Shown here: piece by piece, positions 48,915 through 48,942 of the stretch
Layout of the letters: each line of letters opens with the position of its first letter
How positions within the stretch are numbered: the stretch's first letter is position 1
Source: Bacilli bacterium
Lineage (GTDB): Bacteria; Bacillota_I; Bacilli_A; ML615J-28; CAG-313
Assembly (NCBI GenBank): GCA_017937305.1
Contig: JAGBDV010000020.1
Location: 160,576-224,575 of the forward strand
Direction of reading: 5' to 3'
DNA: 64,000 nt
The notes under the pieces: model-generated
Seen by the model: only the letters and a program-made list of their open reading frames with translations
Told to the model about the DNA's origin: nothing
Databases searched by the model: none
Made by a program: the position numbers and the translations under genes

Positions 48915-48942
48915 GGTTAACATAATATATATTATAGGAAGT
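48915..48942 (-). other. dif: dif, the XerC/XerD chromosome dimer resolution site
   Basis: The - strand reads ACTTCCTATAA-TATATA-TTATGTTAACC. By comparison, B. subtilis dif is ACTTCCTAGAA-TATATA-TTATGTAAACT, giving 25/28 identical with an identical 6-bp spacer. It sits exactly at the gene-orientation switch. Confidence 0.85.

Follow-up and report, generated by a model that had tools for sequence, protein, structure and literature searches.

A Predicted Chromosomal dif Site at the Replication Terminus of an Uncultured Gut Bacilli Genome and a Conserved Sequence Block on Its XerD Side

The sequence considered here, referred to as the window, is a 64,000-nucleotide stretch of DNA (C10:160576-224575; contig JAGBDV010000020.1 of assembly GCA_017937305.1) from an uncultured member of the Bacilli, a small-genome gut bacterium with a GC (guanine plus cytosine) content of 27%. 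With high confidence, we identify a 28-bp sequence on the minus strand of the window, ACTTCCTATAATATATATTATGTTAACC (48915-48942), as the organism's chromosomal dif site. It consists of two 11-bp arms, which form an imperfect inverted repeat around a 6-bp centre: a XerC-type arm, ACTTCCTATAA (48942-48932), the central region TATATA (48931-48926), and a XerD-type arm, TTATGTTAACC (48925-48915). It should be noted that the assembly, which comprises 25 contigs and 1,427,740 bases, is a metagenome-assembled genome (MAG) rated as 72% complete and that statements about uniqueness and the terminus cover its assembled part. The features that define a chromosomal dif/XerCD/FtsK system at the level of sequence were each looked for and found, and the activity of the site is predicted from them.

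A preliminary description of this DNA had read the minus strand at 48915-48942 as ACTTCCTATAA-TATATA-TTATGTTAACC and had compared it with a Bacillus subtilis dif sequence. Re-reading of the letters gave exactly the same result, the B. subtilis sequence used there is identical to that printed for the experimentally confirmed B. subtilis dif, ACTTCCTAGAATATATATTATGTAAACT (Kono et al. 2011, PMC3025954), and recomputation again gave identity at 25 of 28 positions with an identical central hexamer. The XerD arm also agrees with the XerD arm of Escherichia coli, TTATGTTAAAT (PMC3025954), at 9 of 11 positions. The assertion that such a match is very unlikely to arise by chance was borne out by dinucleotide-preserving shuffles of the window, none of which (0 of 100) reached 3 or fewer mismatches, and the genome-wide scan for uniqueness that had been suggested revealed no other dif-like site in the assembly: in the whole 1,427,740 bases the runner-up has 7 mismatches, whichever of the B. 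subtilis dif and the site in the window is used for comparison. The site is single-copy in the assembly, a count that is bounded by the 72% completeness. One candidate for a second dif-like site, AGTTCCTATAATACTAATTATAGAAACT at C5:22105-22132, was rejected as a coding coincidence, as it lies inside a 94-residue hydrophobic open reading frame (ORF) that encodes IIVSIISIIGTIS in a phage-like region. This sequence is a near-palindrome of the XerC arm (AGTTCCTATAA TACTAA TTATAGAAACT), and another word resembling the XerC arm is present 1.3 kb from it.

The site is located in a gene-free gap of 1.43 kb between convergent genes (48302-49729), which contains no ORF of more than 31 residues and has a GC content of 21%, compared with 27% for the genome. 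GC skew is positive from position 1 to about 48 kb of the window and negative beyond, and the cumulative GC skew of contig C10 reaches its maximum about 60 bp from dif, at window position 49002; C10 is the sole contig of the 25 that has an internal switch from positive to negative skew. Gene orientation changes at the same place, the last plus-strand gene ending at 48301 and the first minus-strand gene ending at 49730, and the ORFs of at least 150 residues are distributed between the plus and minus strands in ratios of 28:4 to the left of dif and 0:13 to its right. A change from positive to negative skew accompanied by converging genes is the pattern of a terminus and not of an origin. The proposals in the preliminary description that gene orientation flips at the site and that it marks the replication terminus, for which the position of the skew extremum was suggested as a check, are therefore sustained by the skew maximum, the reversal of gene orientation, and the reversal of a polar word (see below), all of which occur there. 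In other bacterial genomes, dif has been found within about 0-1.4% of the genome length from the GC-skew shift point (Kono 2011, PMC3025954).

XerD and a XerC-like paralogue, as in a classical dif system, are encoded in the assembly. The ORF at 45321-46217 (plus strand, 298 residues) had been designated xerD, 2.7 kb from the site; as a homologue of ripX it scores 339.1 bits with TIGR02225, above the cut-off of 329.6, and the distance from the end of the gene to dif is 2,698 bases. Its product can be aligned from end to end with E. coli XerD (1A0P), all of the catalytic R, K, HxxR, H, and Y residues being retained. A gene for the partner recombinase, whose presence was also to be checked, was found at C19:17173-18174; it encodes a XerC/CodV-like paralogue of 333 residues for which XerC is the best model (326.5 bits, versus 306.1 for XerD), and it is situated between trmFO and rpsB-tsf-pyrH-frr, the position that codV occupies in B. 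subtilis. Contig C14 encodes two further tyrosine recombinases, which are distantly related proteins of the integrase type. A module of the XerS/difSL or XerH/difH kind, with which the only likeness is a recombinase gene near the site, was rejected on the basis of the score obtained with the XerS model (111.8 bits, far under the cut-off of 267), the 28-mer site, and the two Xer paralogues. A translocase of the FtsK/SpoIIIE family is encoded at C11:373-2283; this protein of 636 residues has alpha, motor, and gamma domains (PF17854, PF01580, and PF09397, with a score of 39.2 bits for gamma and a cut-off of 30.6).

The polar word that reverses at the terminus is AGAAGAAG, which is present 414 times on the leading strand and 14 times on the lagging strand of the genome and is distributed in the window in ratios of 15:0 to the left of dif and 0:7 to the right. 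Because about 90% of the genes are co-oriented with replication, the raw strand bias of an octamer is confounded by gene orientation, and as a test for FtsK-orienting polar sequences (KOPS) it was replaced by a comparison of leading- and lagging-strand genes. In leading-strand genes, AGAAGAAG occurs 322 times on the coding strand and 8 times on the template strand, whereas in lagging-strand genes it occurs 3 times on the coding strand and 21 times on the template, which is there the leading strand; none of four control words (GAAGAAA, GAAGAAT, GATGATG, and GAAGATG) flips between the two gene classes. The flip of AGAAGAAG, which the controls do not share, indicates that the word follows the polarity of replication and not the coding strand. 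It is the most strongly replication-polarised frequent word in the genome and includes GAAGAAG, which has been shown experimentally to be the KOPS of Lactococcus lactis (Nolivos et al. 2012, PMC3384302). We infer that AGAAGAAG is a KOPS-type guide word and a candidate target of the FtsK gamma domain. A second word, GAGAAGGG, lies in the gap on the minus strand (49382-49389), where it is on the leading strand and points towards dif from a distance of 440 bp; its genome-wide distribution is 6 leading and 0 lagging, and it is partly retained as CAGAAGGG in a genome of the same genus (G006). We take this word to be identical to the recognition sequence of B. subtilis SpoIIIE. The E. coli guide word, GGGNAGGG, has a leading-to-lagging distribution of 0:2 in the present genome.

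If the site works as its homologues in E. coli and B. subtilis do, XerC/CodV would bind the arm ACTTCCTATAA and XerD/RipX the arm TTATGTTAACC, and chromosome dimers would be resolved into monomers by strand exchange between the two recombinases across the 6-bp TATATA. The FtsK/SpoIIIE-family translocase would be steered to dif by converging leading-strand words of the AGAAGAAG type, meet the Xer complex there, and activate recombination through its gamma domain. The pairing of arms with proteins, the order of strand exchange, and the dependence on FtsK are assigned by analogy and are to be read as predictions.

Comparisons with relatives were made with two sets of genomes: 41 related genomes that were scanned for dif, from which 15 loci were fetched for analyses of skew and synteny, and 185,579 species genomes that were scanned for the exact 27-28-mer. 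A match to dif with 3 or fewer mismatches is present in 26 of the 41 related genomes, nearly always in a single copy, and a reversed control pattern gave 0 matches in the same 41. In each of the 15 relatives tested, dif is located at a switch from positive to negative skew, and in most of them the maximum is no more than a few hundred base pairs away. The 28-bp core is almost invariant across 15 genera in which the flanks have diverged, the most information-rich columns being in the XerC arm, and the inner TATAA/TTATG palindrome of dif was the sole consensus pairing recovered by RNAalifold from 14 genera. The exact 27-28-mer was found in at least 119 species, and its carriers include Bacillaceae isolates, Izemoplasmatales, Anaeroplasmataceae, Acholeplasmatales, and many gut MAGs named "Bacilli bacterium". 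It was also found on contigs binned as Muribaculaceae, Prevotella, Planctomycetales, and Omnitrophota (L038, L049, L051, L073, L076, L082, L093, L096, and L108). In some of these, xerD is found at a distance of about 1.1 kb, and a DnaA-box-like word is present 67 nt from the XerD arm in three; these are either mis-binned Bacilli contigs or a sign of a much wider spread of this form of dif.

The gene order around the site, rluB - PAP2 - Fic-like - PHP > dif < hydrolase - deoB - xerD - hemW - lepA, is kept across the window's family and, with fewer of the genes, in a second family belonging to the order, where the orientation of dif is also retained. In this set the XerD-type arm always faces xerD, although the encoded proteins are just 30-75% identical. 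Location of xerD, usually together with deoB, within 1-6 kb of dif extends to Anaeroplasmataceae, a Thomasclavelia MAG, and others but was not seen in the Izemoplasmatales or Bacillaceae loci examined. This linkage runs counter to a general trend in which xerC is near dif and xerD is near the origin (Kono 2011, PMC3025954). A few gut "Bacilli bacterium" MAGs (L055 and L080, and also L058 and L083) have xerD-deoB on the XerC-arm side, dif being inverted relative to its neighbours, and these loci lack the DnaA-box-like words described below.

Conservation extends beyond the core on one side of dif. Across the 15 genera used for conservation columns, a block that reads TAAGTAAAACC on the minus strand of the window (48893-48903, at 12-22 nt from the arm; family consensus, AGGTAAaAaGCC) is located 12-23 nt past the XerD arm and has a relative entropy of more than 1 bit at several positions, whereas there is no comparable conservation in the XerC-side flank of the same genera. 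Farther out, at an offset of +46 from the XerD arm, is a word resembling a DnaA box, TGTTAATAA (48860-48868, minus strand; TTATTAACA on the plus strand), which has 1 mismatch to the family consensus TGTTGATAA and 2 mismatches to TGTGGATAA, the latter being the DnaA box TTATCCACA read on the other strand; the family consensus at this offset reads TTATCAACA on the plus strand, with 1 mismatch to the DnaA box. A second box-like word, TGTTTATAA (48848-48856, minus strand; TTATAAACA on the plus strand), follows after 3 nt, and the same repeat is present in G021, G019, and L105. In 91 non-redundant dif loci, the interval from +30 to +60 contains 35 words within 1 mismatch of TGTGGATAA, compared with 0.56 expected, and all are in a single orientation (35:0). 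The first box is at +36 to +38 in 18 loci (Izemoplasmatales, Anaeroplasmataceae, and Acholeplasmatales), often as a tandem TGTGGAWAA-KGTGGAAA, at +46 to +49 in 13 loci of the window's family, where it has the form TGTKNATAACT, and at +67 in 4 loci. The steps among these offsets are approximately whole helical turns, and orders other than that of the window have perfect tandem boxes at a dif-phased offset. The flanks were grouped into a class A (TGTGGATAATGTGGAAA) and a class B (TGTTGATAACT). The relatives have a secondary peak of boxes in the same orientation at -240 to -150, on the XerC side, and in Bacillaceae loci with the same dif both the block and the box-like words are absent.

DnaA-box-like words are also enriched in the remainder of the gap. 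Three boxes with 1 mismatch are located on the plus strand within a degenerate direct-repeat array (48346-48436), namely TTTTCCACA at 48346, TTATCCACT at 48393, and TTTTCCACA at 48428, and two more in the same orientation are on the XerC-arm side of dif (49110-49172, plus strand), TTATCAACA at 49110 and TTATCCACT at 49164. The 1.43-kb gap contains five 1-mismatch boxes compared with 0.5 expected (P = 1.6e-4), and its box density is in the top 0.09% of genome windows. The more distant of these boxes are not conserved in the same-genus genome G006. Because dnaA is absent from the present assembly, box usage at oriC was taken from the dnaA-dnaN regions of same-genus genomes, which contain both the perfect TTATCCACA and its variants TTTTCCACA and TTATCCACT. 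Binding of DnaA to the +46 word in the present genome is doubtful, since that word has 2 mismatches whereas the same-genus oriC uses the perfect box. Another stretch with five 1-mismatch boxes (44333-45174), inside hemW and just upstream of xerD, is in coding sequence with the boxes in mixed orientation and was set aside as probably due to chance.

Two other properties of the flank were considered. A structured RNA was rejected, as RNAalifold gave -1.1 kcal/mol for 14 genera with no compensatory pairs. The class B consensus AAATGTTGATAACTA (+44 to +58 from the XerD arm; 48857-48870 in the window) resembles, with a one-base insertion, what we take to be the core of E. coli Ter, ATGTTGTAACTA; to our knowledge no Tus homologue is to be expected in Bacilli, and the resemblance is probably a coincidence of AT-rich words.

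The flank is probably an accessory module that is bound by a protein. It is explained most simply as a place where a sequence-specific protein docks and is kept in a constant register relative to XerD. Where the tandem boxes are perfect, as in other orders, the obvious candidate for this protein is DnaA, which is less strongly suggested in the window's family. The winged-helix protein encoded near dif (see below) was considered as an alternative binder, but the case for it is weak because it was not detected beside dif in Izemoplasmatales, where the boxes are best. The module might gate FtsK, titrate DnaA at the last-replicated locus, or act in a manner unrelated to dif; in the E. coli system, FtsK must approach from the XerD side. 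As a tentative proposal, which we regard as possible but rather unlikely in its full form, dif in wall-less and wall-reduced Bacilli may be composite, comprising the block 12-23 nt out from the XerD arm and DnaA-box-like words that are strand-specific, phased with the helix, and in some orders arranged in tandem; these would be bound by DnaA or another sequence-specific protein, gating the access of FtsK to XerD or coupling dimer resolution and the handling of the terminus to the initiation cycle. The lineages concerned are Izemoplasmatales, Acholeplasmatales/Anaeroplasmataceae, and the gut family to which the window belongs, with its neighbours. In the literature searched, there is no description of DnaA boxes attached to dif or of the conserved block.

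The explanation that competes most seriously with a composite site is that the XerD-side flank is unrelated to dif and merely shares the gap with it as a DnaA-titrating cluster, a remnant of a promoter or operator, or a fork-pausing element. We consider this to be a real possibility, although it falls short of being the probable one. In its favour, clusters of DnaA boxes outside the origin exist in both E. coli and B. subtilis (PMC13220808), the TGTKNATAACT form in the window's family relaxes a normally conserved position of the box, the +46 word in the window has 2 mismatches, and the more distant gap boxes are not conserved in G006. However, the boxes nearest to dif are at discrete offsets (+36 to +38, +46 to +49, and +67) that differ by nearly whole helical turns, all are in one orientation, there is no equivalent on the XerC side, and an explanation based on RNA structure is excluded. 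Phased offsets, a single orientation, and one-sidedness suggest a stereospecific relation to the Xer complex as opposed to mere co-location.

Several observations weigh against the identification of the site as dif and its proposed setting. The XerC-like protein scores 9 bits below the NCBIfam equivalog cut-off (326.5 versus 335.15). Only one FtsK homologue was found in the assembly, and visual inspection of its sequence revealed no obvious membrane domain at the N-terminus. In the flank, the +46 word is 2 mismatches from a DnaA box, compared with the perfect TTATCCACA at the oriC of the same genus. The incomplete assembly (72%, 25 contigs), in which dnaA was not found, limits what can be said about uniqueness in the full chromosome and about a position opposite oriC, and the evidence for dif is in silico throughout. 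With regard to the translocase, a protein without an evident membrane segment resembles the soluble SftA of B. subtilis, and a membrane-bound FtsK paralogue may be encoded in the missing 28% of the genome.

Among alternatives to a chromosomal dif, one possibility is that the site is mainly a platform on which XerD alone unloads SMC (structural maintenance of chromosomes) complexes at the terminus. In the terminus of B. subtilis, XerD is described as unloading Smc-ScpAB at XDS sites, which resemble dif (PMC11840125 and PMC11894783, both citing Karaboja 2021), and the restriction of flanking conservation to the XerD side and the tight linkage of xerD to dif would be in keeping with such a role. 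Nevertheless, both arms and the centre are fully conserved, as expected of a crossover site for two recombinases, the XerC arm is the most information-rich part, and the XerC paralogue is retained; furthermore, roles in SMC unloading and recombination can coexist. A site that acts mainly in the XDS manner is very unlikely. We give slightly less credence still to a Xer site belonging to a mobile element, such as the attachment junction of a prophage or of an integrative mobile element exploiting Xer (IMEX), or a cer-type site from an integrated plasmid. IMEX elements integrate at dif, and the unusual length of the gap (1.43 kb), with its decaying repeats and internal terminators, could be viewed as traces of such an event. 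In one relative of the same family (G015) there are two dif-like sites, at C41:46622-46649 and C39:99-126, the latter 99 bases from a contig end; the second copy could be an element integrated at dif or an assembly duplicate. In the present genome, however, dif is single-copy, no integrase, phage, or plasmid genes are present within 10 kb, the flanking genes are housekeeping genes whose synteny extends across two families, and the other tyrosine recombinases are encoded on C14. A functionless AT-rich near-palindrome produced by chance, for which the base composition of the genome and the abundance of AT-rich inverted repeats in the gap provide material, is already refuted by conservation of the 28-mer between diverged flanks in 15 genera, in addition to the skew switch in 15 of 15 relatives, the shuffles, and the 7 mismatches of the runner-up.

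Identification of the site as dif also agrees with its likeness to characterized systems. B. subtilis dif is reported to function with CodV (XerC) and RipX (XerD), activation being by SpoIIIE/SftA (Sciochetti et al. 2001, as cited in PMC3025954 and PMC13220808). The present system resembles that of B. subtilis in the 28-bp site with 25 identities and the same TATATA, in the two recombinases and the position at the terminus, and in the xerC homologue at the trmFO-codV location, and its FtsK homologue may be SftA-like. In B. subtilis, xerD is presumably next to deoB (drm), as it is here. It differs in that xerD is 2.7 kb from dif, a linkage retained across several orders but not in the Bacillaceae loci examined, and in having, on the XerD side, the block and the DnaA-box-like words, neither of which is present in Bacillaceae loci that share this dif; unlike in B. 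subtilis, no rtp/Ter system was identified in the present analysis. The E. coli system shares the 11-6-11 layout, a XerD arm identical over 9 bases (TTATGTTAA), polar words that converge on dif, and the gamma domain of FtsK, but differs in the XerC arm and in its guide word, GGGNAGGG, as opposed to the A-rich AGAAGAAG. In its inclusion of GAAGAAG and its tracking of the leading strand independently of the coding strand, AGAAGAAG is similar to the KOPS of L. lactis, although lactococci have a single recombinase, XerS, and a 31-bp difSL in place of the classical 28-bp dif found here.

The XerD-side flank can be compared with two types of element. The plasmid sites cer (ArgR/PepA) and psi (ArcA/PepA) combine a Xer core with sites at a fixed distance for proteins other than recombinases, and the flank would act in a similar manner. 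Their accessory DNA, of about 180 bp, is on the XerC side and makes recombination independent of FtsK, whereas the conserved DNA described here is chromosomal, is on the XerD side, spans 25-70 bp, and contains DnaA-box-like words. The second type is the non-origin cluster of DnaA boxes, represented by datA and DARS1/2 in E. coli and by six DnaA-box clusters (DBCs) in B. subtilis (PMC13220808, PMC4585315), with which the present words share clustering and common orientation of 9-mers within 1 mismatch of TTATCCACA outside oriC. Those clusters are origin-proximal or in the middle of a replichore and are not attached to dif, whereas the words considered here are at the terminus, in phase with the XerD arm.

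The gap has additional features. In addition to abundant AT-rich inverted repeats, there are four terminator-like hairpins (48307-48331, 48620-48647, 49187-49206, and 49609-49641), two of which score on both strands to give 6 hits, compared with 0.1 expected in shuffles. Those at 48620-48647 and 49187-49206 are internal to the gap and are aimed at dif from either side, as though short transcripts or decayed genes formerly ended there, and a decaying direct-repeat array with units of AAAGATGA[AG]...GTTTTC[CA]ACA extends over 48341-48720. No Rfam family was detected in the gap, the only hit being a sub-threshold His_leader (E = 0.22) on a terminator hairpin. Short AT-rich words, such as TTAATTATTCA, were not convincing as gap features (3 occurrences versus 0.75 expected, with 3 reached in 5 of 100 shuffles).

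The last two genes of the plus-strand replichore before dif are deoB, encoding phosphopentomutase (46180-47400), and a gene for an alpha/beta hydrolase (47402-48301). On the minus strand, the final gene before dif encodes a PHP-family, histidinol-phosphatase-like protein (49730-50560), and next to it (50535-51587) is a gene for a protein of the Fic/Fido fold, in which the active site is degenerate and a winged helix forms the C-terminal part. This 350-residue protein has no Pfam or NCBIfam match but is homologous over its full length to 8uqu, a "Fido domain-containing protein" of solved structure (E = 1.3e-23); it has IKPYSEYNEL in place of the catalytic Fic motif, which is IHPFPDGNGR in 8uqu, the winged helix contains an invariant PLGTGRSAKW, and the AlphaFold2 model has a pLDDT (predicted local distance difference test) score of 82. 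It is likely, judging from these motifs, to be a DNA-binding Fic-fold pseudoenzyme. Its gene remains 0.3-2.8 kb from dif across several orders.

The dif site itself is ordinary, and the linkage of xerD to dif, the polarised AGAAGAAG, and the XerD-side module, of which the literature searched contains no description, add somewhat to its interest. As the preliminary description had envisaged, the site provides a reference point for the window: it fixes the terminus of a fragmented MAG on contig C10 and divides that contig into two replichores. The classical Firmicute dif, identical over 27-28 bases, is common to Bacillaceae, Izemoplasmatales, and gut "Bacilli bacterium" MAGs, and with AGAAGAAG the type of KOPS known from L. 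lactis is extended to an organism that has XerCD, recognition of the word by FtsK being predicted. A composite dif, if the tentative proposal is correct, would be a chromosomal counterpart of the accessory sequences of plasmid Xer sites, located on the opposite side of the core, and the XerD-side module, if functional, would connect the apparatus for initiating replication to the place at which the chromosome cycle ends.

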